Of a stretch of DNA of 64,000 bases, positions 1 to 17,287 are shown in pieces. Both the position numbers and the translations under genes were made by a program. Every line of letters begins with the position of its first letter. Position 1 is the first letter of the stretch. The notes beneath the pieces were generated by a model, which had not been told where the DNA came from, made no database searches, and saw nothing but the letters and a program-made list of their open reading frames with translations. The DNA is from a virus, in IMG/VR virus record IMGVR_UViG_3300031754_000002, positions 1-64,000 of that record; one strand, given 5' to 3'.

Positions 1-297
1 CGACCACGACCACGACCCCGACCCCGACCGCGACCACGACCGCGACCGCGACCACGACCCCGACCGCGACCACGACCGCGACCGCGACCACGACCACGAC
101 CGCGATCCCGACCACGACCACGACCCCGACCGCGACCACGACCGCGACCCCGACCGCGACCGCGACCCCGACCGCGACCGCGACCGCGACCGCGACCACG
201 ACCACGACCACGACCACGACCGCGACCGCGACCACGACCCCGACCCCGACCGCGACCACGACCGCGACCACGACCCGAGGACAGCCGTGCCGGTCAC
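1..297 (-). CDS. Low-complexity S-[R/W/G] dipeptide repeat protein (MTGTAVLGSWSRSWSR...), truncated by the window
   Basis: GTG at 297 overlaps the TGA of a 21-aa ORF (294-359, MRRSWSWSGSRS...), which overlaps the stop of 356-619 (GTGA coupling). Confidence 0.5.
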   Translation of the reverse strand, partial: MTGTAVLGSWSRSWSRSGSGSWSRSRSWSWSWSWSRSRSRSRSGSRSRSGSRSWSRSGSWSWSGSRSWSWSRSRSWSRSGSWSRSRSWSRSGSGSWSWS

Positions 298-355
298 GAC
301 GACCGCGACCACGACCACGACCGCGACCGCGACCCCGACCACGACCACGACCGCC
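1..355 (-). repeat. Imperfect 6-bp tandem repeat (minus strand TCG-NGG, N=T/C/G), running off the window edge
   Basis: cgacca/cgaccg/cgaccc units throughout, interrupted only at about 277-297. Confidence 0.95.
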
Positions 356-619
356 TCACTTCGATGCGGTGGGCAGCTCGTGGTGCCAGGGGATGATGTC
401 CACGACTGCGCCGAGATTGACGCGCACGCCGTCGCCAAGCATCTCCACTTCGTTTAGCTCACTAGGGCCATGCTTGATCGTTTCTCCGAGCCGACCCGTG
501 TCGGCGACCCACGAGGCGCCCTTCAGTTCAAGGAAACCATCCTCCACCGCCGCGACCTCGCCAAGCTGGAAATATGTGACGGTGCGCACTAGCACCCGCT
601 GCCCTATGAGCTTATTCAT
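356..619 (-). CDS. DUF6948-like small phage protein
   Basis: IGQRVLVRTVTY...GEV...LELKGASWVADTG pattern; AAAGGAG RBS upstream. Confidence 0.75.
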   Translation of the reverse strand: MNKLIGQRVLVRTVTYFQLGEVAAVEDGFLELKGASWVADTGRLGETIKHGPSELNEVEMLGDGVRVNLGAVVDIIPWHHELPTASK

Positions 620-692
620 TGATCTTCTCCTTTGAGGTTTGGCGCCACACGGGATCGTGTCTCGCCAGTTTCGATATGAGATTCTTGCGTCA

Positions 693-720
693 ATGCCTGA
701 TAAGGGCCCTTATGACAACC
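693..720 (+). promoter_or_regulatory. dif-like XerC/XerD site
   Basis: ATGCCTGATAA-GGGCCC-TTATGACAACC, 11-6-11 architecture. Confidence 0.6.
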
Positions 721-934
721 ACGAGACGGCGCGCGATTGGCTCAAGCGCGGGCGTCACGACTGCCCACCACGCGGCGCGTAGATCAACCAGCGCGTAGTC
801 CAGCTCGGCCTGGTCAGCCGCCCAGAGCCGCCGGTGGCCGACGCGCACGACTTCGCTGGAGATCCCCACGTCGCCGGCCTTGCAGCAGCCGTAGCGGCAG
901 TCGTCCTCGCGCGGTGCCGGGAAGACATCGATCC

Positions 935-1276
935 TCACCGGAGCACCTCGAACTCGACGCGCCACACGAGCTTGCGCAGCGGCAGGGAGCCATTGATCGC
1001 CTGGAACGCGATGGCGAACTGCTCCACGCTCGGGAAGCCCTCCTTGCGGGCCTCGGCCTTGCTCATGTCGAGCATCTGTTCCTGCGTGCAGGACACCACG
1101 CGCGCGCGTCCGATCGACGGCTTGCCGCGTCCCGGCTGCACGGCGAACTCCTTCCCCTCGACGTAGATGCACCGCTCGCGCCACCACGACGACCGCGCGT
1201 TGTCGCTGACGAGCCGCCGCGTGACCGTCTTCTCGCCAGCCATCACCTTTGCTGCGAGCTCGGGGCGGAAGATCAT
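935..1276 (-). CDS. ASCH domain protein
   Basis: MIFRPELAAKVMAGEKTVTRR ... EARKEGF ... VWRVEFEV. Confidence 0.85.
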   Translation of the reverse strand: MIFRPELAAKVMAGEKTVTRRLVSDNARSSWWRERCIYVEGKEFAVQPGRGKPSIGRARVVSCTQEQMLDMSKAEARKEGFPSVEQFAIAFQAINGSLPLRKLVWRVEFEVLR

Positions 1277-1427
1277 CGGCCCCTCGGACGGCCGTGGCGA
1301 CGCTTCTGTGGTCGATTGCGGCGAGCGCGGGCCTGTGCTCGTGCGCCTCGACGCAAGATAAGCCGAAGTCCGGGCGGCGTCCGATACTCCTGCGTCTTCG
1401 CCTCGTCATACACTAGCTCGCCCCGCT

Positions 1428-2255
1428 TCACGCTGGCTCCAGGGTGTCGAACAGCGAGGACTGGCCCGCATCCGCAAATTCGCGTCTGCGTGCGGCTGAC
1501 TCCGACCTCACCTCAATAGATAGATTCTCGGGGTGCTCGGCCCACCAGGCGATGCGAGCTCGCGCGAGCGCTAGGTAGCCCTGGTCTCGCTCGATGCCGA
1601 GGAACCGGCGGCCCTCGAGCACCGCGGCGCAGCCCGTCGACCCGGAGCCGGCGAATGGGTCGAGCACGAGGGCGCCCGGCGGCAGTCGCAATTCGAGGAT
1701 CCGCTTCGCGGCCACGCGCTCCTCCTCGGAGCCTCCAATCGCAAGCGATCTGACGGTCTCGTCGTCCAAGGCTGATATCTGGCGCTCCATCTCGGGTTGC
1801 GACCGCAGTGCTCCCTCCTCAGCCTCCCGCTCCGCGCGCCGCGCCTCCTCGCACGCGGCCCGGCGTTCCGCTTCGGCCCGCTCCTCGGCTACCCGGCGCT
1901 GCTCGTCAAGCCGAAACTGCTCCTCGGCGCGCAGGCGCTCCTGCTCTTGGTGGAAGGCGAGCAGCTTGCCGCGCACCAGCCCGTCCGCCTCGGTCAGCGG
2001 GAAGATGGCGCCTTTCATCCTCTCGTTGATCGCTTTAACGTGGGCATTCAACGGATCGACGAGAAAGCGACGGGCGCGCTCACTGCGGTCTCGCGCGGCC
2101 TTGATCTCAGCGAGGAACGCTGTTGCGTTCTGTGCTTGGTCGGATGTCTCGACCTCGATCTCCCTCGCCCGCGCCACCACTGCTGAGACCTTGGAGGAGA
2201 CCTCCGCTAGCTTCTCCTGCTCGTCGGTGACGATGGCGCTCACTGAGCTTGCCAT
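1428..2255 (-). CDS. Coiled-coil phage protein fused to a C-terminal fragment of an N4/N6 DNA methyltransferase
   Basis: N-terminal helical coil; C-terminal [31 protein letters not shown]-binding motif, with no DPPY/SPPY motif. Confidence 0.7.
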
Positions 2256-2440
2256 CCCTCTGACTCGTCGGCGACCGCGTTGAGGGCGGCGGCAATGTCA
2301 CGGGCTTCGGCGGCCGTGATGGTGTAGCCGTCGCCGCCGTCCGGCACGAAGTGGATGCCATCGATGGGGGCACCCACGTCCGTTAGGTCCAGTTCGACCG
2401 TGATGCAGCGCTTCACGGTCGTTACAGCGAAGTCGCTCAT
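2240..2440 (-). CDS. Hypothetical phage protein (MSDFAVTT...)
   Basis: ATGA overlap with the Bet stop. Confidence 0.55.
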
Positions 2441-3273
2441 GCTCGCGTCCCCGCCATATGCGCCGCCAATGCCTCTCTGAAAGCCGGCAGAGTGGCCTGG
2501 GTCAGTTCGTCGAGCCTGTCCACGCCGGCGGCTAGGCACAGCATCTGCATTGCGGTGTCGTCGAGGCCGTGGGTTGCGGCGGCGATGTCGGAGCGCTGCT
2601 CGTCGGTCAACGACATCGGTCCGCTGTAGATTACGCCGACGGCCGCACCTGCTCCGCCTCGGTTCGGGCCGGCGTCGGCGCGCGATTCGGCGTCCGCTTG
2701 CGCCATCTCGTCCACCGTGTATAGCCCGGAGAGGTCGTTGGGGAACGCGCGGCGCAGCGCCAGCGCCTCCGCGACCTTGGCGAGTTGGTTGGCCGGCATC
2801 TTCTGCCACATGAAATCTTCGGCGGGGACGTACTCGCGCCAGTGCGCGACCGCCGGCGAGTCCGAAACCTGACCGGCGAGAAGCTTGCGGACCGTGACCT
2901 TCGCCGCCGAGGGGTGGCCGTCGGTCAGCCAGACCTCTTTCCAGCGCCCGGATTTGCCGCACCACGCCGTGCTGACCGTCCCGAGGTAGCAGCCGGTGCG
3001 CTCCGCGATCAGGCGGAACCCGTCGATCGAGGTCTGCACCGTCATCACCTCGCGGCGCGCGCGGCGGTCGTAGCGGAAGATGGCGAATATTTGCTTCGAG
3101 AGTGGGTCCAGGCCCGTTCTCTTGGCTTGCCCGACGAATAGTGCCAACTCGTCGTTTGTCGCCTCCCGGTCCTTGGGGCGGCAGATGGTCCGCTTTATCA
3201 ACGCGAGCTGCTCGGGTGTGAAATCCACGAGTGCGGGCGCGCTGCCGTTCGTTGTCGTTGCTGACGCGCTCAT
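2437..3273 (-). CDS. bet: Phage single-strand annealing recombinase (Bet/RecT family)
   Basis: [61 protein letters not shown]. Confidence 0.92.
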
Positions 3274-3687
3274 CGGACCGCCCGGCTCTCTTTGGCGTCG
3301 GCGCCGACCGTGCAGTCTACGCCGGGGTGAGACTCGCCCGAGGATGCCCGCAGCCCCGCCGGACACGGGAGCGACCCATGCACGGCCTCGTTTGGGTGTC
3401 CCCCTCGGTTATCCACCCCGTCGTCGGCCGGCTCGGGCCAGCCGTAGAAGTCGGCGTCGCCCCAGCCGTCGCGGAGCGCGTCGTCGAGGCTCACCGGGCC
3501 GTCGTGGTCGGCTAGGCACGACATCAGAAGTCCTGCACCTTGCCCGGCCCAAGGCGGTCGGGCGGGGCTGGCGGCACATCGTTCAAGCGTGCCGCGGCTC
3601 GTTGCGCTTTCGGGAGGTCGAGATACGGGCCGCCGACCGCTACGCCACTGACAGGATTGACGACGTGGTCGAACTGGCTGCGGGCGC

Positions 3688-3891
3688 TCACCCCTCAGCC
3701 CCGCCGGTCACACCCAACGCCGCCCGTGCGGCGTGCGCGATCGAGACAGAGAGGTTGGTCGCCTCTTCGAGGTCGAGCACGACCGCGAAGTCCACTACGC
3801 CGCATTTGATCGTGAGGCGCACGAGCCCCGCCGTCTCCAGTGCCTCTGCGTATGCCACGAGGAGAGAGCTCCACGCGGACGCCCGGTCCAT
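3688..3891 (-). CDS. Hypothetical protein (MDRASAWSS...)
   Basis: Start overlaps the stop of the upstream HTH gene. Confidence 0.4.
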   Translation of the reverse strand: MDRASAWSSLLVAYAEALETAGLVRLTIKCGVVDFAVVLDLEEATNLSVSIAHAARAALGVTGGAEG

Positions 3892-4103
3892 CACGCGTCC
3901 TCCGGCGGCCACAGGCTCGTGACGCTCACACCCAACACCTTGGCGATCCTGCGCTGGGTGACGTACATGGGGATGCTGGCGCCTCGTCGCCAGCGTGAGA
4001 CCTGCGAGACGTTGACGCCGAGCTCCTTGGCGAGCCACTGGCCGGTGCGCTCTGCGGCCCATAGGGCCTCGTCGAGCGGCGTGCGGACGGCGCGGCGGGT
4101 CAC
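3891..4103 (-). CDS. Cro/XRE-like HTH regulator
   Basis: QWLAKELGVNVSQVSRWRRG...IAKVLGVSVTSLW; leaderless GTG after a promoter. Confidence 0.85.
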   Translation of the reverse strand: MTRRAVRTPLDEALWAAERTGQWLAKELGVNVSQVSRWRRGASIPMYVTQRRIAKVLGVSVTSLWPPEDA

Positions 4104-4110
4104 GCTGAGC

Positions 4111-4138
4111 ACGTTACACGCCAGCTGCGTCATGTCAA
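4111..4138 (-). promoter_or_regulatory. Sigma70-type promoter for the early leftward operon
   Basis: TTGACA-16 nt-TAACGT, 7 nt before the GTG. Confidence 0.65.
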
Positions 4139-4218
4139 GCGATTGACGCAAGTATTGGCCGGTGTTTGCGGGATTAGGCTTTCCCGAAGCCCCAACGGGG
4201 CGAGTAGCTTTAGACCAG

Positions 4219-4638
4219 ATGCAAGCCAAGCCTAAAGCGCCCGACTTTCGCGAGGCTATTCGCCAAGCGGCTCTGCCTCATTTGACAGCCGACGGTGCGG
4301 TGATCGTCCGTCTCGTTGGGCTGACCGGCGGGAAGCGCGGACCCTACTGCGTCAGCCGGCTCTACGCCCGCGCCGACTACGGCAGCGGCTATGACGGCTC
4401 GTGTAAGTTGCGGGCCGTCGTCTGGGGTCGTGTGACGCGGATGTACAACGAGGACACCGTTGGCGCGAACTTCTACGTCGTCTATCGCTACAGCAGCGGC
4501 GCGACGGTCGTCTACCACGACCCCGACAGCATCCTGCTGCATGTAGCCGCGGCTCAAGCTGCTGTGTATGGCTACGAGGAACGCACGCTCTCCGCGAGTC
4601 ACAGCTTGAAGCACTCCGCGCGGGGGAACTGCTCGTAG
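4219..4638 (+). CDS. Hypothetical protein
   Basis: Open frame with plausible composition, divergent from the HTH gene. Confidence 0.5.
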   Translation: MQAKPKAPDFREAIRQAALPHLTADGAVIVRLVGLTGGKRGPYCVSRLYARADYGSGYDGSCKLRAVVWGRVTRMYNEDTVGANFYVVYRYSSGATVVYHDPDSILLHVAAAQAAVYGYEERTLSASHSLKHSARGNCS

Positions 4639-4765
4639 AACGCTCGTCTACTCAGGCTTCGGTCATGTCCTGCCTCTCTTCCAGGCGCGCCAGGCGCCTC
4701 TCGTGGTAATCGGCCATCGGTGCTCAGACTACAGCGAGCAGCTATGTTCGGGCGGCGGCAAAACA

Positions 4766-4794
4766 TTGACAAGTTGCCGAACCCGGTGTAGTCT
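4766..4794 (+). promoter_or_regulatory. Sigma70-type promoter
   Basis: TTGACA-17 nt-TAGTCT, followed by a leader hairpin and AGGAG RBS. Confidence 0.7.
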
Positions 4795-4867
4795 CAAGAC
4801 CCAGAACAAGAAAGGCGCCCGCGCGAGTTGAGGTTCGCCGGGCGCCGGGCCACCACGAACAGGAGAC

Positions 4868-5603
4868 GTGATGACAGCCAGCAGCCTACCGAGCGTGACC
4901 GTCGTCTCCGTTAAGTTGAGCCCGGACACGCTCTCGCACTGGCGCGAGGTGATCCGGCGATACCACGAGACCTACCCTCCGGCCTCACCCCAAGACCCTG
5001 ACGACGACGCCAAGCTCGTGTTGCTGTGCGCCTTCCGTGGGGCAGCGGACTATGAGCTAGCAGCGACCGGCGGCCGGACATGAACGCCAGCGCAGCATCC
5101 GCCCGTCGGCGGGCGGTGATCCTCACCCGCAAGCTGGCGAGCGCCCTCGCCACGCTCACCGAGAACCTGCGCGCCCCGATCACGCTCGAACAGGTCAACC
5201 ACACGCGGAAAACGCTCACCTACGCCAAGGTCCACAACGGACCGGGCCGAGGGCGCTACACGATCTCGACCGGCGGCCGTGCGCGGCGAATGGGGTCCTC
5301 GTGATGTCCGCCGGAGACCGGGCGGTCCGGGCATACATCGAGTGTCTGCGCGCGTCCGCCGACGACGAACGCGTCATCGAGCGCTACCGGCAGCCAGGCG
5401 ATCAACTCGACCGCGTACGGGCGGCTAACCACTATGCCGCCATGCTAGACGAGGCCGAGCACGAGATCGAGGCAAGGGCAGACGCCTATGAACGGCACCT
5501 CGACGCCATCCAAGACGAGGAGATCATTCCACCGGAGAACGCGGCCATGCGCCGCGAGATTGACCGGGCGTTCGATGCTGTGCTCGGAGAGGGCCGACGC
5601 TAA
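4868..5603 (+). CDS. Three coupled small hypothetical genes (4868-5083, 5080-5304, 5301-5603)
   Basis: ATGA/GTGA overlaps; RBS before the first gene. Confidence 0.6.
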
Positions 5604-5621
5604 ATGCCGGTTTCACTCTTT

Positions 5622-5649
5622 CGTGGTCATAACATGGATTATCGAGCGC
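5622..5649 (-). promoter_or_regulatory. dif-like XerC/XerD site
   Basis: GCGCTCGATAA-TCCATG-TTATGACCACG. Confidence 0.65.
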
Positions 5650-5715
5650 CGCAACAAGCGCTCGTTTACGGGGCTTTTCGGTGCTTGATTGACATAACCG
5701 TTACGAGCGCTCGTC

Positions 5716-6171
5716 GTGTGGCGTGAGTGGCTAGCGTCGCTCGATCCCGGCATCGCACCCTTTGTCGATGTACTGCACGCCCACGGGATCGGGACAACAG
5801 AATCTTGCCAGGGTGGGAAGGGGCATGCGTTCCCTGAGCCAACGGTCTGCTTTGACGGGGATCTCAGTGAGGGCTACCGGGCTGCTGCGATAGCCCTCAC
5901 TCACAGCCTGCCGGTGTCCTCGATCCGCCGCTGCTGGCCGATCCACAGCTCCGGGGAGTTGACTGGGCCGGAATGGCAAATCGTGTTCTCACGGACAGCA
6001 CGCGAGGGCGATGTAAACCCAGACTCGCTGCCGGATGAGATGGAGATGATGGCCCGTGGCTACCTGGACCGGCGTGCTAAGAGGACTGTTGAGCCGTCGT
6101 ATCTAGATCATCGCAGCGTTTGCAGCGTATGCGTCCATTGCGGCCGGGCTCCCGATGACGCTGCTGAATGA
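5716..6171 (+). CDS. Hypothetical protein with LDPGI...G..T.ESC.G..GH motif; paralog of 9271-9753
   Basis: LDPGIAPFVDVLHAHGIGTTESCQGGKGHAFPEPTV vs LDPGVAPYVDALREAGVETFESCEGGRERGHCYPEPTV. Confidence 0.75.
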   Translation: MWREWLASLDPGIAPFVDVLHAHGIGTTESCQGGKGHAFPEPTVCFDGDLSEGYRAAAIALTHSLPVSSIRRCWPIHSSGELTGPEWQIVFSRTAREGDVNPDSLPDEMEMMARGYLDRRAKRTVEPSYLDHRSVCSVCVHCGRAPDDAAE

Positions 6172-6348
6172 GCTTCCCGTGGCCGCATTCGTCGCTGTCG
6201 TGGTAGCGACGCTTCTCGTCGGCCTCGTACTCGTCGGAGTTCGTGTGGAACGGCTGCACTTTGGTCATTGCGTGTCCTTCCGGTCGCGGATTCCTCGCAA
6301 CGCTAAAGGACGGGGGAAGGCTGCGTCAGCCCGCGTTTTTGACCTACT

Positions 6349-6376
6349 GCTTGTCATAATCTGCATCATCGGGCGT
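6349..6376 (-). promoter_or_regulatory. dif-like XerC/XerD site
   Basis: ACGCCCGATGA-TGCAGA-TTATGACAAGC. Confidence 0.6.
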
Positions 6377-6617
6377 AGGGGAGAAGCCCGCAAAGTTCCA
6401 TGTAATCGACGCTTTCCCCAGTCGTGCTGTATGCTGCCGGCAGTAGAGCGCCCCCCGGCACGAGTGCACCGAACCGAGGGGCTACACCAAGGAGGCCAGT
6501 CCTTGATGTACCAGCATCCTATAACGTCCCGCGCGTCAAGTCCAGATAGCGGACTTTCCACGGACGCGCTTACGACCCCTGTTGTCGTGTCCGAAGCCCT
6601 GTCTAGCGTCTCGCGGC

Positions 6618-6740
6618 GCAGGCGTGGCGGAATTGGTAGACGCACCGGACCTTTAATCCGGCGGCAACACGTCAGAACCCTGAGACCAAGAATCAAGGGC
6701 GTCCTGACCGGCCATGTGGGTTCGACTCCCACCGCCTGTA
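6618..6740 (+). tRNA. Atypical tRNA: Leu-type body, loop CCTTTAA (anticodon TTT), variable arm of about 53 nt
   Basis: Acceptor GCAGGCG/CGCCTGT+A; D arm GCGGAATTGGTAGACGC; anticodon stem CCGGA/TCCGG; T arm GTGGG-TTCGACT-CCCAC. Confidence 0.8.
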
Positions 6741-6963
6741 CGCAGGCTATTCGACTCTGCTCCTGCTTGTTCCTGCTTGTGCTCTCGCTGGTGCCCCAAA
6801 CCGTCAGGGGCAACAGGTGAGGCATCCGAAGCCATGTCTAGTTTACGGGGTGCTTCTCGTTCGCGCGGGGAACGATGACCTTCGTAGTTCAGCGGATCGA
6901 GCGCTTTTGTCGCATCCGAAGCATACTCTAGCCTGCGGGGGCTTCCTTGACGGGGAGCGGTCA

Positions 6964-7036
6964 GCCTCCGTAGCTCAGTGGATAGAGCAGTCTTCTAGCG
7001 ATGGACAGGTCCCGAGTTCGACTCTCGGCGGGGGCG
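6964..7036 (+). tRNA. Atypical tRNA: Arg-like body with anticodon AGC
   Basis: GCCTCCG/CGGGGGC+G; GCTC-AGTGGATA-GAGC; GTCTT-CTAGCGA-TGGAC; CCGAG-TTCGACT-CTCGG. Confidence 0.8.
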
Positions 7037-7277
7037 TCAGGCCGGTATTCGGCACGCCACACGCCGCTTCCTGCATAGCTCGATTCCGACCTCTCGCTGC
7101 GGTACGCTTCTCAGTGCTAGAGGACTGCCCACCGGAGCTAGACCACGATCCCTTGTGGTTCGCTTCCGCTAAGGGCTTGAGGGGTCTGCTTCGGCAGGCC
7201 CCTCACTATGCTCGCACGCTTCTACTCGCCGTCTCCCTCTCGCTGGTGCTACCAGCTACAGCCCAGGTCTGTAAAGG

Positions 7278-8093
7278 ATGAGGGGCTTCGGCAGTATCGA
7301 GCGCGCGCACGGAGTCGATGAGCCCGACTATGAGCCACCGGCACGCGCCGAGAGGATGGTTGAGACAGGCGACCGCTTGCAGTCGGCTGCCAGCCGGATG
7401 GCATCCTTCGGTGGCTCGCTCGTCCGTCTCGGCTGCTCGGGGTCTGTGCTACTCGCCATCGTTCTGATCGTCGCTGGAGCGTTCTCAAGCCACTCCGCGA
7501 ACAGCAGCCCACCGGAATCCATAACGACAAGCGCCGAAGAACAGACCACGACTGCTGCGAGTACGCCAGCACCAGCCAAGACGGTCGCTAGCAAACTACA
7601 GGCCACGACCTCGTGCGGCAATGAAGGGCAGACCGACTTTGGCGTGTCTGTCAACGCGAACACGAGCTGCCCGTTTGCGATGGCCGTCCTCAAAGCCTAC
7701 GTGCAGGCCGGGTGGGCACCTAGCACGCCGAAGGCCGCAACGGTCAGCGCGTGGAGTCCCACCACACACAAGTCCTACAGCATGTCGTGTGCCGCGCTCT
7801 CAAGCGAAGCCATCGGTTGCTCTGGCGCCAATCACGCGTATCTCACATTTCAGATAGCCGTCGGCAGCGCGATAGCCAGCCAGGAACTTGAAGCCCAACG
7901 CAGTTCCGAAGGCGGCGACCAAGTTGGTTCCCTGAGCCACGCCACGGATGAACAGTTCTGCGAAGAACATGAATGTATCGGTAGTTTCACCAGCGAGGAA
8001 GGCACCGTTGTTGAATGCGCTGACGGCACCTATAGCCATGCGGGCGGTATCTCGGGTGCTTGCTCGGACCATGGCGGGGAGCGAGAAGGGTGA
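7278..8093 (+). CDS. Membrane-anchored Cys-rich extracellular protein with C-terminal DUF3761-like motif
   Basis: TM segment VLLAIVLIVAGAF; S/T linker; ECADGTYSHAGGISGACSDHGG. Confidence 0.75.
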   Translation: MRGFGSIERAHGVDEPDYEPPARAERMVETGDRLQSAASRMASFGGSLVRLGCSGSVLLAIVLIVAGAFSSHSANSSPPESITTSAEEQTTTAASTPAPAKTVASKLQATTSCGNEGQTDFGVSVNANTSCPFAMAVLKAYVQAGWAPSTPKAATVSAWSPTTHKSYSMSCAALSSEAIGCSGANHAYLTFQIAVGSAIASQELEAQRSSEGGDQVGSLSHATDEQFCEEHECIGSFTSEEGTVVECADGTYSHAGGISGACSDHGGEREG

Positions 8094-9016
8094 AGCCACC
8101 GGTCGCCATCTGCGTCGCTGTCGTAGCACTCCTACTACCGGCTACATCTAGCGCTACGGTCCATGTAGCGGAAATGCGGTTTATCGCTCCGAGCGAACCA
8201 CCGTCCCTCGAAGCACCGCTGCCAGCATGCGAGCCGTCTCACGAGCCGACCATCCAAGAACGTATTGAAGAACACGGAGCCAGCTCGGGAAGCAACTGTC
8301 GGCTTCTCAGTGAGGGCGATCACGTCGTCACAGCTACCTACGATGATGAACAAGGCAGCGTCACAATCGGGCTCGAAGTCTACAACCCCGGTTATTGGGG
8401 TCCAACACACGCCCAGGTAATGTTCGGCCTCGGCGCATCATGTCCTAACCCCGAACTCACTGGCAACGTGGTCGGCCAGTACCTACCACGAGGTGCTTCA
8501 TACACCGAAAGCGAACAAGCCGATACGGTAGCCCTCCAAGGATATACAGGGTCCGTTGAAGGGCACGAAACTTTCTCGGGCACCACGTTTACATGGACGT
8601 TTCGGAGTTCGGCCTTCGCTAACCGTGACTGGCGCTGCTTTTCCTTTGACGGCGGTAGCCAGACTGCGGCGTTCAACGGCTACCCCGAACCGCTGCCACA
8701 GCTCGTGTGCTTCACGGGCCATTACTACGTGGGGCGCCTGCGTCCGCATAACTGCTTGATCGCTCGGCCGAACTCGAATAGCAACGAAGTCTTCGACCTG
8801 ACGCATCTCCACTGGACGAGCTGGAGCGCCACACAAGCCACTGCGACCGGCTATGAGCTCGGCTCGCATCCGGGCATGACCGGCGCGAAACCCTACCGGG
8901 TGCGGCTCCTAGCCTCACGGCCCGGCACCGACCCCACAACTGGCGGACCGATGTTCACACGCATCACTGAGTACTCCAGTGCGCATCCTCACGGCCGAAC
9001 GGTACGACCCTACTAA
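8090..9016 (+). CDS. Secreted hypothetical protein
   Basis: Signal peptide MKPPVAICVAVVALLLPATSSA; LTHLHWTSWSATQATATG motif. Confidence 0.75.
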   Translation: MKPPVAICVAVVALLLPATSSATVHVAEMRFIAPSEPPSLEAPLPACEPSHEPTIQERIEEHGASSGSNCRLLSEGDHVVTATYDDEQGSVTIGLEVYNPGYWGPTHAQVMFGLGASCPNPELTGNVVGQYLPRGASYTESEQADTVALQGYTGSVEGHETFSGTTFTWTFRSSAFANRDWRCFSFDGGSQTAAFNGYPEPLPQLVCFTGHYYVGRLRPHNCLIARPNSNSNEVFDLTHLHWTSWSATQATATGYELGSHPGMTGAKPYRVRLLASRPGTDPTTGGPMFTRITEYSSAHPHGRTVRPY

Positions 9017-9113
9017 TGCGACGCGCTCTCGGCATACTCGCAGTCAGCGCTTGTTGTCTAGCCCTGCTCCCGCTCCCCGCGCTAGCGTTCGGCGCCCACA
9101 ACAAGGAGCAGCC

Positions 9114-9293
9114 ATGTCCTATTACACGATCGAGGAGCATTTGCCGCACGTCTACCACACCTATGAGACGTGTCCCGCTGGTAAGGCAATCAAGTCAGCG
9201 AACCGGCGCGAGGGAGAGGGTAGCGGCCGACGCCTTTGCGACGACTGCGAATACATCACCAAGAAGCTCGCTAAGGAACAGCAGCAAGGGTAG
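9114..9293 (+). CDS. Small His/Cys (likely Zn-binding) protein
   Basis: AAGGAG RBS; VYHTYETCPAG...RRLCDDC. Confidence 0.7.
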   Translation: MSYYTIEEHLPHVYHTYETCPAGKAIKSANRREGEGSGRRLCDDCEYITKKLAKEQQQG

Positions 9294-9753
9294 GCGGCTC
9301 GACCCATCCTGGATCACGCGGCCCAAGGACCGTGCCGTCCTCGGCGCGCTGGAGCCTGCCGTCTCGGACCAGCCGATCAACGAAAGGCATCGACGGCTCA
9401 TCTACGGCCCACTCGGGATTGCGTTCTCGTGCCTGTGGGTCGTTCGCTGCCCACCAGAAGGCAATCTCCCAATCTGGCACTCCAGCCCCTCCTTCATGCA
9501 CCGGCCAGTAACGACGCAGCGCGCGCACCGGAAAGTGATGGTCGAGCGCCACGGCAAGAGCGCGAAACCCCTCTTCTTGGTCGCCACCGAAGCGCACGGT
9601 CGGCTCGGGATAACAGTGGCCCCGCTCCCTGCCACCTTCACACGACTCGAACGTCTCCACCCCAGCCTCACGCAACGCGTCCACATACGGAGCCACGCCA
9701 GGATCAAGCTCGGGGAGCATCCGCGCACGCCACGCCTCATGGTCAGGGTTCAT
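9271..9753 (-). CDS. Hypothetical protein, paralog of 5716-6171
   Basis: Shared motifs; AAGGAGG RBS. Confidence 0.75.
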   Translation of the reverse strand: MNPDHEAWRARMLPELDPGVAPYVDALREAGVETFESCEGGRERGHCYPEPTVRFGGDQEEGFRALAVALDHHFPVRALRRYWPVHEGGAGVPDWEIAFWWAANDPQARERNPEWAVDEPSMPFVDRLVRDGRLQRAEDGTVLGPRDPGWVEPPTLAAVP

Positions 9754-9874
9754 CCCACCCTCCTTCTTTCGGCTAAACACCGGCCCGCTACGGCTATTGC
9801 ACACCGGCACAAGCATCACTCACGTGCAGATAGTAAGGCTCTACTAATGCAACCGTCTAAACCGGAGGTCCGCC

Positions 9875-10351
9875 ATGCGGAATAATAGCTCGTGGGTTCT
9901 GTTCCTGCGCTTCCTTGCTAGCGGAGCGATCCTGTTCGGCATAGGCGGTTGTGCAAACAGTTCCGCCCAGGTGTCATCAACCACTGTGGCGTCTACAGCA
10001 CCCACGTATATCCAAGCCGAACATGCCGAGACCGCTTTCGAGACGCGCTTCCGCGCCGAATACATGGCGGGCAAGAACCAAGGCTATCTACGCTCTAGCA
10101 CTGTCCGCTTTAGGACACCTTGCCATAGTGAGGGGAGCGGTAGGTGGACCTGCGAAGGCTGGGGAATGGAAGCTATGGCTGGGAGCGAAAACTGTGTTCT
10201 CGTGACTGCCACTGCGACCGCCAGCGGCGTTGAAGGCGAACTCCATGCCGAAACCGAGTCGCCACAGCAAGAAGGATTCAACGTCTGCCGCGAAGGAACC
10301 AAGGAAGGACAGCCGCTCGGAAACCTAAACGCCGAAGGAGGCACTGAATGA
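9875..10351 (+). CDS. Putative lipoprotein
   Basis: Hydrophobic signal followed by IGGC lipobox; GGAGG RBS. Confidence 0.7.
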   Translation: MRNNSSWVLFLRFLASGAILFGIGGCANSSAQVSSTTVASTAPTYIQAEHAETAFETRFRAEYMAGKNQGYLRSSTVRFRTPCHSEGSGRWTCEGWGMEAMAGSENCVLVTATATASGVEGELHAETESPQQEGFNVCREGTKEGQPLGNLNAEGGTE

Positions 10352-10719
10352 TACGCCTACTACTAGCCCTAACCGCCGTCACCGTGCTCTGCATTTCGCC
10401 AGACGCGTACGCAGCTACCCATCACCACAAACACCATGCCGTGCATCGCGCCACAGTTCCAGTCGTCGCCCCAACCGAAACGCTCGATCTAGTCGAGGCG
10501 GCCTACGCCATCGAAACCCAGTCAGTCAAAAACTGGAATACGCCCGGTGTAGAAGCAGCCGTGAGCGAATGTCATTATCTCGCGCACCCCTGGGAAGTCC
10601 AGTGCGTCGTGGACTGGACAGACCCGTCCTGGGTATCGCCTATATGCGGACGCCTTGTGATATCCGGCCTCGATACCGCGATCCTCGAAGACGGTCACAT
10701 CGATGTCTATGCTGCCTAA
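10348..10719 (+). CDS. Secreted hypothetical protein
   Basis: Signal peptide ending AYA; His-rich mature N-terminus. Confidence 0.7.
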   Translation: MIRLLLALTAVTVLCISPDAYAATHHHKHHAVHRATVPVVAPTETLDLVEAAYAIETQSVKNWNTPGVEAAVSECHYLAHPWEVQCVVDWTDPSWVSPICGRLVISGLDTAILEDGHIDVYAA

Positions 10720-10721
10720 AA

Positions 10722-11417
10722 CTACAGCAATAGCGTCTGATATTCGACGCTGACATTTTCCACAAGCGCCGCCTGCCATGTCTGACCCGGATTGACATCG
10801 AAGGGACCATAAGGGAGGATGAGATCATTGAGCGACGGAGCCTGGACCTGGAACATTTCGGGTAGTTCGACACCCCCTACGAAGACCCCCAGCCAGCCCT
10901 TCTGGTTTTCTTCCACCCGTACACGCAGCATCACCCGTGCCGGGCGCGTTTTACTGGGTTCGATTTTTTCGGCCGATTTTTCGTACGGTTTTCGCACCGA
11001 CCATAGCTGTTCCCGCTTGGGTTCGCCGAACATGAGCCAGTTGACGCCATCGGGGTACAGGATCGCCCACTGATTCACCGCAAACTTGACTTCCGCTGCT
11101 TCGATTGGACCCCCCCGGATTTTTTCCCCGTGGGTAGCTTTCAAGCTCAACACACCCACCGTACAAAACACCGCCACCGGCAGGTTCGCCGTCGTCGCAG
11201 CAGGCAGATTCACAGTCGCCGTCGCTGTCGTCTCCACCAGTTCCCCGGCTTTCGCCGTCACTTCCACGGCAGTCGATTTGACCGTCAGGAAGCGTTGCCC
11301 GAAGATCACGTTCAAGCGTTCCGCGAGTTCTTTGAAATCCGCCGCGCCTAGTTTGACTTTGCCCGTCGGATCAGGATACGGAAGTGACCATGGAGTAGCG
11401 GTTTCGTGTTCCGGAAT
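10722..11417 (-). CDS. Virion/tail fibre-associated protein, probable ATT start
   Basis: Frame opens at ATT CCG GAA (IPEHETATPWSLPYPD...) after AAAGGAGG; in-frame stops lie just upstream. Confidence 0.65.
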   Translation of the reverse strand: MPEHETATPWSLPYPDPTGKVKLGAADFKELAERLNVIFGQRFLTVKSTAVEVTAKAGELVETTATATVNLPAATTANLPVAVFCTVGVLSLKATHGEKIRGGPIEAAEVKFAVNQWAILYPDGVNWLMFGEPKREQLWSVRKPYEKSAEKIEPSKTRPARVMLRVRVEENQKGWLGVFVGGVELPEMFQVQAPSLNDLILPYGPFDVNPGQTWQAALVENVSVEYQTLLL

Positions 11418-11440
11418 AGGTCATCACCTCCTTTTCGCAG

Positions 11441-11971
11441 CTAGTCGTGCATAGACCACGCTTCTCGTGTGATCTCGAAGAACTTCCCGCGCGCTGAGCC
11501 ATACCACCGGACCTCATAGTCACCCGCATAATGGCCGTCCGGCTCTCCCGTCCACTGCACGAAAACTTCACCATCTCCGCGGCTATGAATCTGTCCGTCT
11601 GGATACGTCCGCACACCAGACGGACCCTTCACCACACACTCCATGACTCCGTGAATAGACGATGGCTCATGCGTCGCATCTTCCCTGCGCCTAAGAGCGA
11701 ATTGAACGCCATTACCGGCGATATGTCCAGTAGCCCTCCAACGCTCATTCGACCGCGACCAGCGATAGCACCCCAGCTCGAATAGAAACAGACCACCTCG
11801 AACCACAACGAGCGCTCCAACACCCCCGACCACCGCCGCGAGCAGGATGTCTGACCACGAGGCAGACAGAAGCTCGTGGGTCCGCGTCTGCGCCTCATGC
11901 GTAGCCTGCCAGGTAGCTCCAACGAGTGCACCTAACAACGCAACAACGCCCTGCATAATGGAGCGGCCCAT
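11441..11971 (-). CDS. Membrane protein (moron) inserted in the tail operon
   Basis: Two hydrophobic segments; sits next to a dif-like site. Confidence 0.55.
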   Translation of the reverse strand: MGRSIMQGVVALLGALVGATWQATHEAQTRTHELLSASWSDILLAAVVGGVGALVVVRGGLFLFELGCYRWSRSNERWRATGHIAGNGVQFALRRREDATHEPSSIHGVMECVVKGPSGVRTYPDGQIHSRGDGEVFVQWTGEPDGHYAGDYEVRWYGSARGKFFEITREAWSMHD

Positions 11972-12121
11972 GCGCTCCTCGCTGGCCTGATATACCCGCC
12001 ACAACACTCGCCCGCTCGGAAAGCCATCGTGCACGCAGTCATCATCCCGCAATGGCTAGGCGCCTGGTTTTGTGTCTGGGTTTCTCGGCTTCTGCTAAGC
12101 TCGCCGCGAGAGGATAGACCT

Positions 12122-12149
12122 AGGTTCCATAGCATGAATTATCGAGCGT
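12122..12149 (-). promoter_or_regulatory. dif-like XerC/XerD site
   Basis: ACGCTCGATAA-TTCATG-CTATGGAACCT. Confidence 0.55.
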
Positions 12150-12219
12150 AGAATAGCATACGCCCAACGTTCACGGGCTTTCCGCTCGACGCTAGGTTGC
12201 CATAACATCGCTCTTTGCG

Positions 12220-13392
12220 TCAGAATTCGCCCGGCAGCACGTTTTCCCAGGTCACGCCAGCGCCGACTCCTTCCCACGTCAATGCGCCTTCAATCCAGGC
12301 TCCTTCAACTTCCACGACCTCATAGAACAGTCCGGCCGGCTTGACCGAGTTGATGGCTTCGTACAACGCGTTGCTTGCTTTCCCCAGCGGTACGAGCACC
12401 ACGAAGAAATAGGCGTCCGGTTCGCCGTTGGCGTTCGTCCGCTCCTCGATCGTGAACGGCTCCCCAACACCAAGCACCCGTTCAATCGCTGCTTCCATCA
12501 ACGCCAACGTACCCCGCGCGAACCCGGAGTGTGCTTCCAGGATCGCGCGCGCTTCTGCTTCTGACGCACCAACCGGGATGACGGTCCCTACGAACATCCC
12601 GAGATACGCGAGTGCGTCAGCAGGGCATGTTTCGACGTTGAACAAGGTGCCGAACCCCGGCACGTAGCCCGGTAGGACCGTGACGCTATCGCCTTTTACA
12701 CCGCTCCATTCATAGCCCGGCGAGTCACCATCTACGTATGGTTCGGATGTGGAAACGGCAGCAATCAGGATGTTGACTTTAGCCGCTTCGATAGTGCCTA
12801 CGGAGAATGCTACCATGCCCGAAGCACTCGGTGTCAACGTGACTGAGTGTCGTGTCCATGTGCTGCCACTCTGTGTGATATCGACGCTAGCCGTACCACA
12901 CGCTCCCGAGCCGAGCGATAGCCGCACTTTCACACCGGCCACCGCTTCATACAATGACACGTGAACCGTGATCGGTATGCCTTTCGTAACTGGCAGTATT
13001 TCTGCGGTGTGCGCGCCTTCCTGCGTAGTGCTACCGGCCGTACTGATATCAAGGTAGCTGTCTAGCCCGAAGATCGACGTGGCCTGCGAATACCCAGGGA
13101 TGATATAGACTTTGTTCGTCGCCCCTTCGCCTATCAGCCAGCTCGCGTTGTTAGACCATCCCGCAGCAGCACCAAGATACGTGTCATGCGCAAAGCTCGG
13201 GTTCGGGATCAGGTTCGCCGTCGTGCTCGGAGTGCCGTCGCTGCCCTGTTCTTCCGCTAGTCCCAAGGCCGGCTGAAACATCGCGCCCAGCGCGTTTGTG
13301 AGTCTCGCCAAATCAGTCTTCCCGGCGATCTTCGGGCCGGTATCCCACGGGGCCAGACGTTCTAGCAGGCGTTCACCGAAGGTGGTACTCAT
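12220..13392 (-). CDS. Baseplate wedge protein (P2 gpI-like) with inserted carbohydrate-binding-like domain
   Basis: ETCPADALAYLGMFVG...RGT...AIERVL...KPAGL; NLIPNPSF domain start; follows baseplate J. Confidence 0.75.
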   Translation of the reverse strand: MSTTFGERLLERLAPWDTGPKIAGKTDLARLTNALGAMFQPALGLAEEQGSDGTPSTTANLIPNPSFAHDTYLGAAAGWSNNASWLIGEGATNKVYIIPGYSQATSIFGLDSYLDISTAGSTTQEGAHTAEILPVTKGIPITVHVSLYEAVAGVKVRLSLGSGACGTASVDITQSGSTWTRHSVTLTPSASGMVAFSVGTIEAAKVNILIAAVSTSEPYVDGDSPGYEWSGVKGDSVTVLPGYVPGFGTLFNVETCPADALAYLGMFVGTVIPVGASEAEARAILEAHSGFARGTLALMEAAIERVLGVGEPFTIEERTNANGEPDAYFFVVLVPLGKASNALYEAINSVKPAGLFYEVVEVEGAWIEGALTWEGVGAGVTWENVLPGEF

Positions 13393-13468
13393 GGTATCCT
13401 CCCATGTAAGCGGGCCAGCGACGAGTCACCGTCCTGGCCCATGGCCACACCTAAGCGAGAGGTGCAGT

Positions 13469-14128
13469 ATGAGCAAGACTATCGAGATTCCTCTACTAGC
13501 CGACGGCTCGGTAGCGCTTATCGACGCGGCCGATGCCGTGCAGGCACGGTGGCGATGGACGCGACAAACTAACGGCTATGTTGTCCGCGCCACACCCACA
13601 CGCAAAGCCATTCTCCTCCACCGCGAGATCCTTGGTATCAGCGATGCTGGCTTCTATGTGCAGGCCGACCACATCAACCGGAACAAGCTTGACAACCGCC
13701 GCGTGAATCTTCGCATCGTCACGATCGCACAGAACCGACAGAATCAGCCGGCTCGTGGGGGCACCTCGTCTTATCGTGGCGTCTCGTGGGCTAAGGACCG
13801 TAAGCGCTGGGTCGCGTACGGTGCTATCGACGAACATTTTTACCGCTTTGGCTCCTTTACTGACGAGCTTGCTGCGGCTCGTGCGGCCGAGGCGTTTCGG
13901 CGCGTGCATATGACCCACGCGGTCCCGGACCTCTCTCTCGACCCTCTGCCGCCATGTCCCTGTCGAGACTGTTCACCGCAAATACCACAGTCACCAACTA
14001 CCTGCGATGTCGATGACTGTAAACGTCTGGCCGAGTCGCGCGGCTGGTGCGCGATGCACTATAAGCGCTGGCGGACACATGGTGATCCGCTCAAGATTGG
14101 TCGGTCGGGGCGCCCTAAACGGCAGTAA
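13469..14128 (+). CDS. HNH homing endonuclease with AP2 domain
   Basis: LHREIL...ADHINRNKLDNRRVNLR; SSYRGVSW...KRWVAY; C-terminal CDVDDC...GWCAMHYKRW. Confidence 0.9.
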   Translation: MSKTIEIPLLADGSVALIDAADAVQARWRWTRQTNGYVVRATPTRKAILLHREILGISDAGFYVQADHINRNKLDNRRVNLRIVTIAQNRQNQPARGGTSSYRGVSWAKDRKRWVAYGAIDEHFYRFGSFTDELAAARAAEAFRRVHMTHAVPDLSLDPLPPCPCRDCSPQIPQSPTTCDVDDCKRLAESRGWCAMHYKRWRTHGDPLKIGRSGRPKRQ

Positions 14129-15569
14129 TGATTATTTGCGCCGGTTCGACCAATGGGAGCGGTGCAGCACCCGGAAGGGTCAAATCAAGCGTTTCCGTTG
14201 GAGTGACAGAGAGCCCGATAGCCAATCCAGCACTGCCCGCAGGCACGTAGGCTACGCCCTGGACGGCGCCCATAACCTCGATAATCTGATTGTACCGTAC
14301 GAGATTGAAGCCTTGGGTAGCGTTTAGCCAGACGTTAGACCCGGTGGTTGCACCCGTCGGATTGCCATAGGTTGCGGGGGACAGGTAGGATTCTACCGAG
14401 CTTTTCACATTCGCGGCCACGGTCGCAGCAACATAGCCGGGAAGTGCGTGTATCTCCCCTGTAACATACACTTTTGAGTATTTCGCTGATTCCACGTAAA
14501 TCAAGAATCCCAGCTCGCGCAGCGTCTCCAGCCATTCCAGCAGCTTTTCGCGGGCTTCGGTCGTGAGCGCCAACCCTTGCGGGTTTGTGACGAACACTGT
14601 GACAGTGCGCTGGTTTTCATAAGATCCGGTAGCTGTGATTTCGGTTTCTTCGGTTTTCGTCGCGGCTTTGCTCAACACCAGCGTTTTCGCGCCTTCGTTC
14701 ACAGACACCACTGTCGTACCCGCAACGATCCCGACCCCGGAGAGTTCGGAGCCAGGGTGTATCTGCGGTAGCGCTTTCGATTCCGGCGAGACACCCGTGA
14801 ACGACGTAACAGCCGTGACGCTCGTTTTGCCGTTTTCGATTTTGGCTTTGAATTTGTGGGCTTCTGGGTTATATCCGTCAATCGCTGTGGCCCTGCCAAC
14901 CACTACACCCGACGGGAGAATGCTCGCGGGAGCACCCAGCGCCATTTGCGCGAAGTTTGCTGCGGTGATCGGCCTCGGCGCCTGGAGTTCAAGCTGCGAC
15001 GCGAGCCGGTTCATGTACGTCGCGTCGGTTTCCTGGTTCGCACCCCCAGTCGTTTCCCCCACCACAACGACTTCGCTGAGGAAGTTCAGGTTGTTGACTG
15101 GGGTTAGGCTCGTTACGCCGTTGCCTTCGGTGCCGCGTTCCGATGCGACCACAATGACCGTAGCTTCTTTTTCGCCTTTGGCTACTTTGACTTCTTTTTC
15201 GACGTAGAACGCCAAGCCGGAGCCTTCAAGCTGGAACCCGGCCGGGATCGTTCTTGCAGGGAATTCGCCGCCTTCTTCGAGAAGCTTGAATTTCGCCGTG
15301 ACGGTGGCTGCTGCGCCTTCGTTGTAGAGCAGTTTCAGTAGCTTTGTCCCGAATTGCCGGAACGCCGCTTCCAACAACACGGACTCGATCAATGCGGCAT
15401 TAGCGGCCATTGGTGCGATCACGTTGATAAGAATTACCTCGGGGTTCCCTTCGTTCGGCACCCAGCCAACGATCCCACGCGCTTCGAGTTCTTCCGCGTA
15501 CTTGTCCAGCGCTGTGTCTACAAGCTGGCTGGCTTCGGTTGAGATGGCCACCCGCTGGAATTCACCCAT
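14115..15569 (-). CDS. Baseplate J-like protein
   Basis: RTIPAG, GTEGNG, TTGGANQETDATYMNRL motifs; gene position. Confidence 0.88.
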   Translation of the reverse strand: MGEFQRVAISTEASQLVDTALDKYAEELEARGIVGWVPNEGNPEVILINVIAPMAANAALIESVLLEAAFRQFGTKLLKLLYNEGAAATVTAKFKLLEEGGEFPARTIPAGFQLEGSGLAFYVEKEVKVAKGEKEATVIVVASERGTEGNGVTSLTPVNNLNFLSEVVVVGETTGGANQETDATYMNRLASQLELQAPRPITAANFAQMALGAPASILPSGVVVGRATAIDGYNPEAHKFKAKIENGKTSVTAVTSFTGVSPESKALPQIHPGSELSGVGIVAGTTVVSVNEGAKTLVLSKAATKTEETEITATGSYENQRTVTVFVTNPQGLALTTEAREKLLEWLETLRELGFLIYVESAKYSKVYVTGEIHALPGYVAATVAANVKSSVESYLSPATYGNPTGATTGSNVWLNATQGFNLVRYNQIIEVMGAVQGVAYVPAGSAGLAIGLSVTPTETLDLTLPGAAPLPLVEPAQIIITAV

Positions 15570-15645
15570 AGTAATAGAGAATGCCGTCGAAGAACCAGCC
15601 TACTTCCGCCGCTAGACGCTTGATGCAATCCCAAGGGTCGCTCAT
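15562..15645 (-). CDS. 27-aa mini-ORF copying a segment of the hub protein
   Basis: MSDPWDCIKRLAAEVGWFFDGILYYYG vs hub ENSWDCIERLAGAVNWFAFTNGHTFYYM. Confidence 0.55.
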   Translation of the reverse strand: MSDPWDCIKRLAAEVGWFFDGILYYYG

Positions 15646-15647
15646 GG

Positions 15648-15950
15648 CTATACCTCGATTGTGATCTGGCGTATCGCCGTGTTCAACGCTTCTTCCTGTT
15701 CGGAAAGCGTTAGGTCCGCCCGTGGCTCCCAGCGGGTGATCTGTTCGTTGAGGGCTTCCAGGTCCAATGGGATGTTCTGGAATGTCTGGTCCGCGATGCC
15801 GAATTCGGGGGAGTCTTCACGAAAGCCCTGTATGCAACTTGCAACGTTGAAGACGCAGTTCGCTATCTCCGCTTCGGAATCCTGTATTGCGGTTGCTGCG
15901 ATGCCTTTAGCGTTGACTGCGTATGGGAAGGTCAGATGTGTAGGCTCCAT
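15648..15950 (-). CDS. Baseplate wedge gp25/GpW-like protein
   Basis: PEFGI...ITRWEPRA motif; lies upstream of J. Confidence 0.8.
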   Translation of the reverse strand: MEPTHLTFPYAVNAKGIAATAIQDSEAEIANCVFNVASCIQGFREDSPEFGIADQTFQNIPLDLEALNEQITRWEPRADLTLSEQEEALNTAIRQITIEV

Positions 15951-15959
15951 TATGGCCCC

Positions 15960-17264: not shown

Positions 17265-17287
17265 GACAATCGCGGGATTAGGTATCT

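Follow-up and report, generated by a model that had tools for sequence, protein, structure and literature searches.

In dif, the chromosomal site at which the host proteins XerC and XerD act, the XerD arm is normally the best-conserved part. On Acinetobacter plasmids, pdif sites or dif modules consist of several Xer-like sites that bound small gene modules, and temperate phages carry operator or promoter boxes in multiple copies, for example repressor operators overlapping -10 elements. Integrative mobile elements exploiting Xer (IMEX) include phages that integrate via the host Xer system, among them CTX-phi, VGJ-phi and TLC-phi of Vibrio (PMC5357621; for TLC-phi also PMC6744903 and PMC9226527). 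Here we describe a set of dif-like elements in a tailed phage, G000, known from IMG/VR record IMGVR_UViG_3300031754_000002; the window analysed comprises bases 1-64,000 of this 105,858-bp record. Three elements, at 5622, 6349 and 12122, form one real, non-random, dif-like family. Our preferred reading, held tentatively and with somewhat less than even confidence, is that they would be binding sites of one regulator, overlapping promoters and terminators at operon junctions.

The record is rated complete by CheckV and has a G+C content of about 60%. It belongs to an uncultured myovirus, with genes for sheath, baseplate, portal, protease and major head protein. Its best protein matches, all distant, are phages of Arthrobacter, Brevibacterium, Gordonia and Mycobacterium, and the host is therefore likely to be an actinobacterium. 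Four 28-mers of 11-6-11 layout had been proposed as dif-like sites in a sequence-only reading of the window, at 693(+), 5622(-), 6349(-) and 12122(-) (s1 to s4, Table 1). All four are found at these positions and on these strands, although only the last three proved dif-like beyond every shuffle, the site at 693 being at chance level. The two-arm layout with inner dyad symmetry, as looked for in a Xer site, is present: the dyad ATAA-N6-TTAT is exact in s2 and carries one substitution each in s3 and s4. Over the full 28-mers only 5622(-) and 12122(-) resemble each other (20/28).

Likeness to dif was scored by IUPAC consensus patterns. The relaxed pattern YCGATAAKNNABRTTATGWHA was made from published actinobacterial dif sites, and because its degeneracies were picked after the phage sites had been seen, the figures obtained with it are somewhat generous. 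Both s2 and s3 differ from it by one mismatch, s4 by two and s1 by three. Matches with two mismatches or fewer occurred in none of 60 Markov-2 shuffles of the G000 genome, and 0.23 matches per genome are expected from such shuffles at three or fewer. A strict pattern still picks out 6349 (three mismatches, null 0.017). Compared with the consensus CCGATAATNNACATTATGTMAAGT, which is actinobacterial while the host is only inferred, s3 agrees at 18/22 positions (0.03 matches of at least 17 expected per genome); s1, s2 and s4 agree at 15/22, a score for which about two matches are expected per genome and seven were seen. The family profile, built from ten cores, retrieves s2 with an nhmmer E value of 1.6e-7, s2 being one of its training members; it does not detect site 693, and no further family copies were found in the 105.9-kb record. 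Site 693 is likely a borderline or chance-level palindrome outside the family. As an explanation for the whole set, chance occurrence of A+T-rich palindromes in the intergenic DNA of a G+C-rich phage is very improbable. It would account for s1, with its expected 0.23 matches, and a further ATAA-N6-TTAT palindrome does occur inside a gene, at 18714; yet s2, s3 and s4 lie beyond every shuffle and their family is kept at syntenic places in three other phages. Chance is thus refuted for these three and is the likely answer for 693 only. The intragenic palindrome (CATAACTTCGTTTATG, exact at 18713-18728) lies within a 714-amino-acid (aa) open reading frame (ORF) at 17288-19432; its arms misfit the family and it is probably fortuitous.

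Searches of the region and its modules by megablast and blastn gave no close relatives among deposited phages and plasmids. An exact-pattern scan of IMG/VR found the 5622-type module in two high-GC contigs, G001 (53 kb) and G002 (62 kb), and in G003, a near-duplicate fragment of G002; a second scan added L094. The same module pattern gave only two unrelated low-GC matches, and no prophage, in 185,579 species genomes, and no copies in the JGI metagenomes. G001, G002 and L094 share only few genes with G000, yet local gene order is kept. The window runs from gene X through the 5622 module, gene Y1, the convergent gene Z and 6349 to a rightward promoter-like region and tRNAs. The order in G002 is X, a winged-helix gene, a very long hairpin, the module corresponding to 5622 (A-type), Y, Z, a second site (site B, or G002_B), and a zinc-ribbon gene; G001 lacks Y, Z and site B. 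Homologues of gene X precede the A-type module in both G001 and G002. A C-type copy is also present in each relative; it comes just past a tail-fibre-like gene and 50-90 nt before a small gene of the same orientation, a position equal to that of 12122. When s4 is counted with the three C-type copies, the distance is 7-75 nt from the tail-fibre-like stop codon and about 50-150 nt to the following gene, which has the orientation of the element. Each genome has only 2-3 copies, and every one of them is at a syntenic junction. The tail-side and early-side copies are direct repeats in all four phages; they flank an accessory segment of 3.0-6.5 kb, bounded by the ends of the tail operon and of the convergent early operon.

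The family, its pattern of conservation and the positions and orientations of its members are directly visible in the sequences. Ten cores were aligned, six of them from G001, G002 and L094. Invariant in these six is CAACGC[GT]CGATAATGCATGTT, which comprises the XerC-like arm with upstream bases, the centre and the hexamer GATAAT. Beyond this invariant part the XerD-like arm varies (ATGG, ATTG, CTGG, TCGT), and the A-type copy of L094 has no TTATG at all, its XerD-like arm being absent. A conserved XerD-binding arm, as looked for in a Xer site, is not seen in the full sites, and only the separate lone arms described below are well conserved as XerD-type arms. The A at position 2 and the T at position 6 that mark a -10 hexamer are present in the GATAAT of s2, s4 and all A- and C-type copies and in the GATGAT of s3; the hexamer of G002_B is GATAAC. 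The arms are asymmetric, with CGATAA on the left (CGATGA in s3) and YCATAA on the right in 5/10 cores. Copies within G001, G002 and L094 have one shared centre, TGCATG. G002_B, the positional counterpart of 6349, has the opposite polarity inside the same conserved flanks.

The resemblance to actinobacterial dif is real in the sequence, yet we do not read the elements as working Xer crossover sites. Shared with dif are the 11-6-11 layout, a CGATAA(T) left arm, a TGCAnn-type centre and TTATG on the right; s3 is the closest copy, and the lone phage arms come close to TTATGTCAAGT and TTATGTCAACT. By hand comparison, the G002 copy of the 5622-type site agrees with dif of Clavibacter michiganensis subsp. 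sepedonicus at 18/21 core positions. For Frankia alni, dif has been predicted as CACGCCGATAATGCACATTATGTCAAGT, and other actinobacterial predictions are given in the supplement of the same work (Kono et al. 2011, PMC3025954). The claim of dif architecture, judged against the likely host phylum, thus holds as far as this resemblance goes and fails for the XerD-like arm, which is the least conserved part in the relatives. Unlike chromosomal dif, which is present once, the elements occur in several copies per phage genome; the full sites have a degenerate right arm that the relatives do not keep, the left arm has an extra base (ACGCnCGATAA against ACGCCGATAA in dif), and the copies lie at operon junctions instead of the replication terminus. 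Any binding of XerC and XerD would here be putative. All full sites that keep TTATG have A or G as the next base. In the published list of 66 actinobacterial dif sites this base is T in all but two, those of Jonesia denitrificans and Corynebacterium jeikeium (TTATGAC; PMC3025954).

The first pattern scan also found viral sites with good XerD-type arms elsewhere, namely TTATGTTAAAT (L036), TTATGTTAGGT (L054/G004, 5365-5380) and TTATGTAAAGT (L055/G005, 262-277). The last, in a record classified as proviral, is 262 nt from that record's end and may be a host dif or an att junction.

Functional host XerC/XerD sites, that is dif mimics used to excise, insert or swap the accessory segment or to integrate the phage, are an explanation that we consider unlikely, although a good deal speaks for it. 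The dif match is significant, above all for s3 and for the single mismatches of s2 and s3, and it extends to the A-type copy of G002; the lone arms are good XerD-type arms, and the arms differ in a C-type/D-type way. A pair of direct copies flanks the accessory segment in four of four phages, and G001, G002 and L094 share a common centre. In addition, searches of the whole G000 record gave no tyrosine integrase, no serine recombinase or resolvase and no ParB, which extends to the full genome the earlier remark that no integrase was in view. A more elaborate form of this idea, to which we give slightly less credence, would be a group of tailed actinophages whose dif mimics recruit host XerC/XerD: the 3-6.5-kb segment would be an excisable cassette between direct copies, the remaining copy, together with the lone arms, would provide accessory or alternative partners, and no phage recombinase would be needed. 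Several of the observations above count against Xer sites, namely that the XerD-like arm of the full sites is least conserved and is missing in one copy, that A or G follows TTATG, and that s3 and G002_B are inverted within the same flanks. G002 moreover has an integrase of its own 31 kb away. If host XerC/XerD did act here, tailed phages would join filamentous phages and Acinetobacter plasmids in moving cargo by the chromosome-resolution machinery, and the known variability between tail-fibre and early genes would have a simple mechanism.

Comparison of breakpoints in related phages, suggested at the outset as a check on Xer exchange, gave a divided answer, with breakpoints near the elements but none in a centre. 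G001, G002 and L094 are mosaic, with 54 blast segments between G001 and G002, and no crossover within a 6-bp centre could be placed among the breakpoints of the three. The homology between L094 and G002 starts within one base of the left edge of the C-type conserved core, which is suggestive of exchange there and counts in favour of Xer sites. The C-type cores of G001 and G002 are 22-nt islands of identity between unrelated flanks. This pattern fits either exchange at the cores or strong selection on them. The insertion or deletion of Y-Z between G001 and G002 extends from the lone arm to just beyond site B and does not end in a centre. Because the sites bounding it are oppositely oriented, it is not explained by simple excision. 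Nor could a Xer crossover yield the inversion of s3 relative to G002_B, because a crossover in the centre leaves each arm on its own flank. At 11 other viral loci with homologues of gene Y no such sites were found.

Like pdif, the elements are several sites bounding small modules, Y-Z of G002 lies between oppositely oriented copies, and G000 has no recombinase. Unlike pdif, there are three copies only, those around Y1-Z in G000 are direct and not inverted, and the XerD arm has decayed; nor did the comparisons show one cargo recurring in several backbones between such sites, with the breakpoints falling in the site. Like the attP of IMEX phages, the elements are dif-like DNA in a phage without integrase, and TLC-phi too has a poor XerD arm. 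The known IMEX cases, in contrast, are filamentous or small non-tailed phages with one attP region, whereas G000 is a 106-kb myovirus with three dispersed copies, and no integrated copy of its family flanked by dif or hybrid sites was found in the 185,579 species genomes or the metagenomes. The proposal of Xer-mediated cargo exchange or integration is weakened by these comparisons: the decay of the XerD-like arm, the s3/G002_B inversion, the site-free Y loci and the lack of a prophage in the scans all speak against it.

Another explanation is that the elements would be conserved boundary linkers, short homology patches for homologous recombination between co-infecting phages that need no dedicated reader protein. 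The mosaicism of G001, G002 and L094, the 22-nt identity island and a RecT-family protein encoded by G000 at 2437-3366 agree with such linkers; a search for relatives of this RecT protein gave distant loci only. However, 22 nt is short for RecT-type exchange, G000 is too distant from G001 and G002 elsewhere for neutral retention, and the dyad symmetry, the fixed 65-nt arm spacing and the resemblance to dif would be left unexplained. We regard linkers as quite improbable.

Sites 5622 and 12122 each lie within a two-copy module of 85-95 nt, which on the minus strand consists of a lone XerD-like arm, the motif GAAAGCCC, a hairpin and the site GCTCGATAATyCATGyTATG. The shared motif beside the two sites, reported before as GAAA(A)GCCC(C)GT.AACG, was recovered as GAAA(A)GCCC(C)GT.AAC, or GAAAGCCC..GT.AAC, and the lone XerD-like arms announced near 5685 and 12195 are at 5687-5697(-) and 12195-12205(-). 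The first of these is preceded by GCGCTCGTAA-CGG and has the look of a degenerate second site. By hand count, the spacing from the lone arm to the TTATG position is exactly 65 nt in 5622, G001, G002 and L094. In the A-type modules this lone arm is of good XerD type and reads TTATGTCAAC in both G002 and L094. One strand of the s2 stem overlaps the outer XerC-like (left) arm, and the hairpin is followed by TTTAC on the plus strand, terminator-like for gene X. Hairpins with different stem sequences occupy the equivalent position at s4 and in G001, G002 and L094; between s2 and s4 the stems differ while pairing is retained (CGAGCGC/GCGCTCG against GGGCGTA/TACGCTC), although a minimum-free-energy fold of the 79-nt s4 stretch favours other pairings than the stem read by hand. 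When the gene-sense strand is read, TTT(A/G)C comes after the hairpin, again a terminator-like arrangement. The C-type copies have neither hairpin nor lone arm. The module was also considered as a small mobile element with target duplications or an attC-like site, and this found no support, as the 185,579 genomes and the JGI metagenomes gave no more copies.

These hairpins raise the question of a role at the level of RNA, in which hairpin and A/U-rich flanks would form a bidirectional intrinsic terminator at operon ends and, in G001, G002 and L094, GATAAT would start a small RNA of about 95 nt, a long hairpin antisense to the end of the early operon. Covariation of the stems, the TTT run on the gene-sense strand and the positions at operon ends agree with this, as does the very stable long hairpin after the A-type site (-63.9 kcal/mol and z = -5.9 in G002, z = -3.6 in G001). 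Opposed to it are the C-type copies, which keep the 22-nt core without a hairpin, the lack of a long hairpin downstream of s2 or s4 in G000 (z of about +0.4 to +0.7), and the T runs, which are short and not called by a terminator scan. The match of the G002 hairpin to the Rfam F6 small RNA occurred on both strands but did not reach threshold, and neither G001 nor L094 gave it; we treated it as spurious. An RNA-level role is on the whole improbable. The long hairpin itself, of about 90 nt with a perfect 23-bp stem, lies straight after the A-type element, at the end of the winged-helix gene, in G002 (L052 7430-7514), G001 (L053 6915-6995) and L094, and could function as a strong terminator in both directions or as a small RNA.

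We return to the regulator-binding reading, which makes of the elements what had been named as a fallback, repressor operators, and fits better than Xer exchange. The element would have a core of about 22-28 bp, ACGCnCGATAAT-nCATG-yTATG, whose left half includes the -10-like GATAAT. Its reader would likely be a phage-encoded helix-turn-helix (HTH) regulator, perhaps acting with host RNA polymerase. At s4 and the C-type copies it would serve as promoter or operator for the small gene downstream, after the last tail-fibre gene. At s2 the covarying hairpin and short T run would end the early operon, with an upstream half-site at the fixed 65 nt, and s3 would be an upstream operator between two divergent promoters. 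Promoter or operator activity is here predicted from sequence, as is the identity of the binding protein. In favour of such a role are the conserved left arm, centre and -10-like hexamer as opposed to the decaying XerD-like arm, the orientation of the tail-side copies with the downstream gene, the low copy number and the terminator-like hairpin. HTH proteins are common to the element-bearing phages, and G000 encodes no tyrosine or serine recombinase. The HTH protein at 3891-4229 is one candidate reader of the elements; another, at 57416-57646(+), is common to G000 and G001. A search for sigma factors (region 2) in G000, G001 and G002 was negative. The opposite polarities of s3 and G002_B fit a regulator and not a crossover, since either polarity would be tolerable for a bound site between divergent promoters.

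Compared with the operator boxes of temperate phages, the elements are alike in having few copies at promoter-bearing junctions, partial dyad symmetry, overlap with a -10-like sequence and syntenic conservation, as well as HTH proteins common to the phages that carry them. They are unlike them in their consistently dissimilar half-sites and in a mimicry of dif far beyond chance, and their reader is a candidate only. Indeed, a number of points weigh against regulation. The match to actinobacterial dif itself exceeds chance by far, and CCGAT, the centre, TTATG and lone arms near the published TTATGTCAACT/TTATGTCAAGT are superfluous for a promoter. A simple homodimer operator does not predict two arms that are consistently unlike. 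No -35 element is recognisable at 16-18 bp, and a consensus promoter scan calls none of the sites; actinobacterial promoters are often without a clear -35. The general -10 flavour of intergenic DNA in G000 is different (TAGACT/TAGGAT-like). The downstream gene has the orientation of the element for s4 and the three C-type copies, trivially so for s3 and G002_B, which lie in a divergent region, and not for s2 and the A-type copies, which face the early operon end, against the neighbouring genes. Finally, the accessory segment has a direct copy on either side in each of the four phages, and G000 has no integrase. Two more specific forms of promoter were rejected. A leaderless start codon in TTATG would open ATG frames of only 5 and 11 codons in G000, and ATG is lacking at this place in the C-type copies; an extracytoplasmic-function-type -35/-10 reading of GCAAAC...CGAT has inconsistent spacing in s4, and the motif is absent at the C-type copies. 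If regulatory, the elements would be an ordinary conserved promoter/operator/terminator block, notable only for mimicking host-type dif. Either way, family members stand at the edges of the accessory segment in these phages, and they offer a compact target for binding and recombination tests.

Table 1. Elements, associated signals and neighbouring genes in the window (positions in the window; site and stem sequences in the orientation given)
Feature	Position	Strand	Description
Site s1	693..720	+	ATGCCTGATAA GGGCCC TTATGACAACC; perfect 14-bp palindrome ATAAGGGCCCTTAT; outside the family
Site s2	5622..5649	-	GCGCTCGATAA TCCATG TTATGACCACG; GATAAT hexamer inside; family member
Site s3	6349..6376	-	ACGCCCGATGA TGCAGA TTATGACAAGC; most dif-like copy
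Site s4	12122..12149	-	ACGCTCGATAA TTCATG CTATGGAACCT; between tail-like gene and moron ORF
Lone XerD-like arm of s2	5687..5697	-	TTATGTCAATC; 65 nt upstream of the s2 TTATG
Lone XerD-like arm of s4	12195..12205	-	TTATGGCAACC; 73 nt upstream of the s4 CTATG
s2 hairpin	5643..5664		CGAGCGC-CGCAACAA-GCGCTCG; 7-bp stem, 8-nt loop
s4 hairpin	12144..12165		Minus strand GGGCGTA-TGCTATTC-TACGCTC; stem read by hand
Signals beside s3	6287..6331		Hairpin GGCTG-CGT-CAGCC, then TTTTT; minus strand CTGACG-18 nt-TAGCGT
HTH protein	3891..4229	-	112 aa; homologues in G001 and G002
Gene X	5301..5603	+	100 aa; last gene of early-type operon upstream of s2
Gene Y1	5716..6171	+	151 aa; SCQGGxGH motif; bracketed cargo
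Gene Z	6077..6268	-	63 aa; small Cys protein, PFHT...YHD...C..GK.I...C..C; convergent with Y1, overlaps its end
Moron ORF	11441..12052	-	Up to 203 aa; downstream of s4, between two tail-fibre-like genes

The genes around the sites agree with the first description of the locus, in which two sites bracket ORF 5716-6171 (Y1); 5622 and 6349 enclose Z as well. Z has a homologue in G002, in the same arrangement with Y. Beside s3, the hairpin and T run, which are conserved, may be a plus-strand terminator for Y1, and a scan gave a terminator-like match at 6319-6331; CTGACG and TAGCGT would be the -35 and -10 elements of a minus-strand promoter for Z. The latter pair with its 18-nt spacing, the rightward promoter-like sequence and the leader with its ribosome-binding site are all conserved in G002, and s3 is located between the divergent promoter-like sequences. 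At the other end, s4 follows the stop codon (12220) of a tail-like gene of 390 aa and precedes the moron ORF, in the orientation of both. It borders the moron as had been proposed, lying 70 nt upstream of this ORF in its longest reading, which begins with TTG at 12052, and about 150 nt upstream if the start is placed at 11971 as in the first description. The moron ORF has a hydrophobic stretch resembling a membrane helix. A paralogue of Y1, Y2, is encoded at 9271-9819(-) with the motif LDPGVAPYVD...ESCEGG, among plus-strand ORFs that naive gene calling favours. A 29-nt repeat (GCATCCGAAGCC.TGTCTAG...) is present in three copies (6587-6615, 6822-6850 and 6912-6940), the first and third of which end just 5' of tRNA or tRNA-like genes at 6618 and 6964; the repeats may be tRNA promoters or leader elements.

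An Rfam search of positions 1-20,000 gave two tRNAs, one weak PtaRNA1-like match and nothing else. This match to the antitoxin RNA PtaRNA1 is below threshold (28 bits against 47) and lies at 13408-13476(-), between a tail-like gene and an HNH endonuclease gene. At the contig start, positions 1-360 consist of about 60 tandem hexamer units (CGACCR, with super-periods of 12 and 18 nt) of about 68% G+C, and could be coding low-complexity sequence or an end artefact. A block of small genes at 834-1361, encoding a 113-aa protein and neighbours, is duplicated at 77005-77565 of G000, and both copies show 63-65% protein identity to a gene beside the integrase of G002. In the portal ORF, at 51464-53572(-), portal families are matched over residues 1-257 only, and the other 450 residues match unrelated families, which suggests that the ORF carries an insertion or a fusion.

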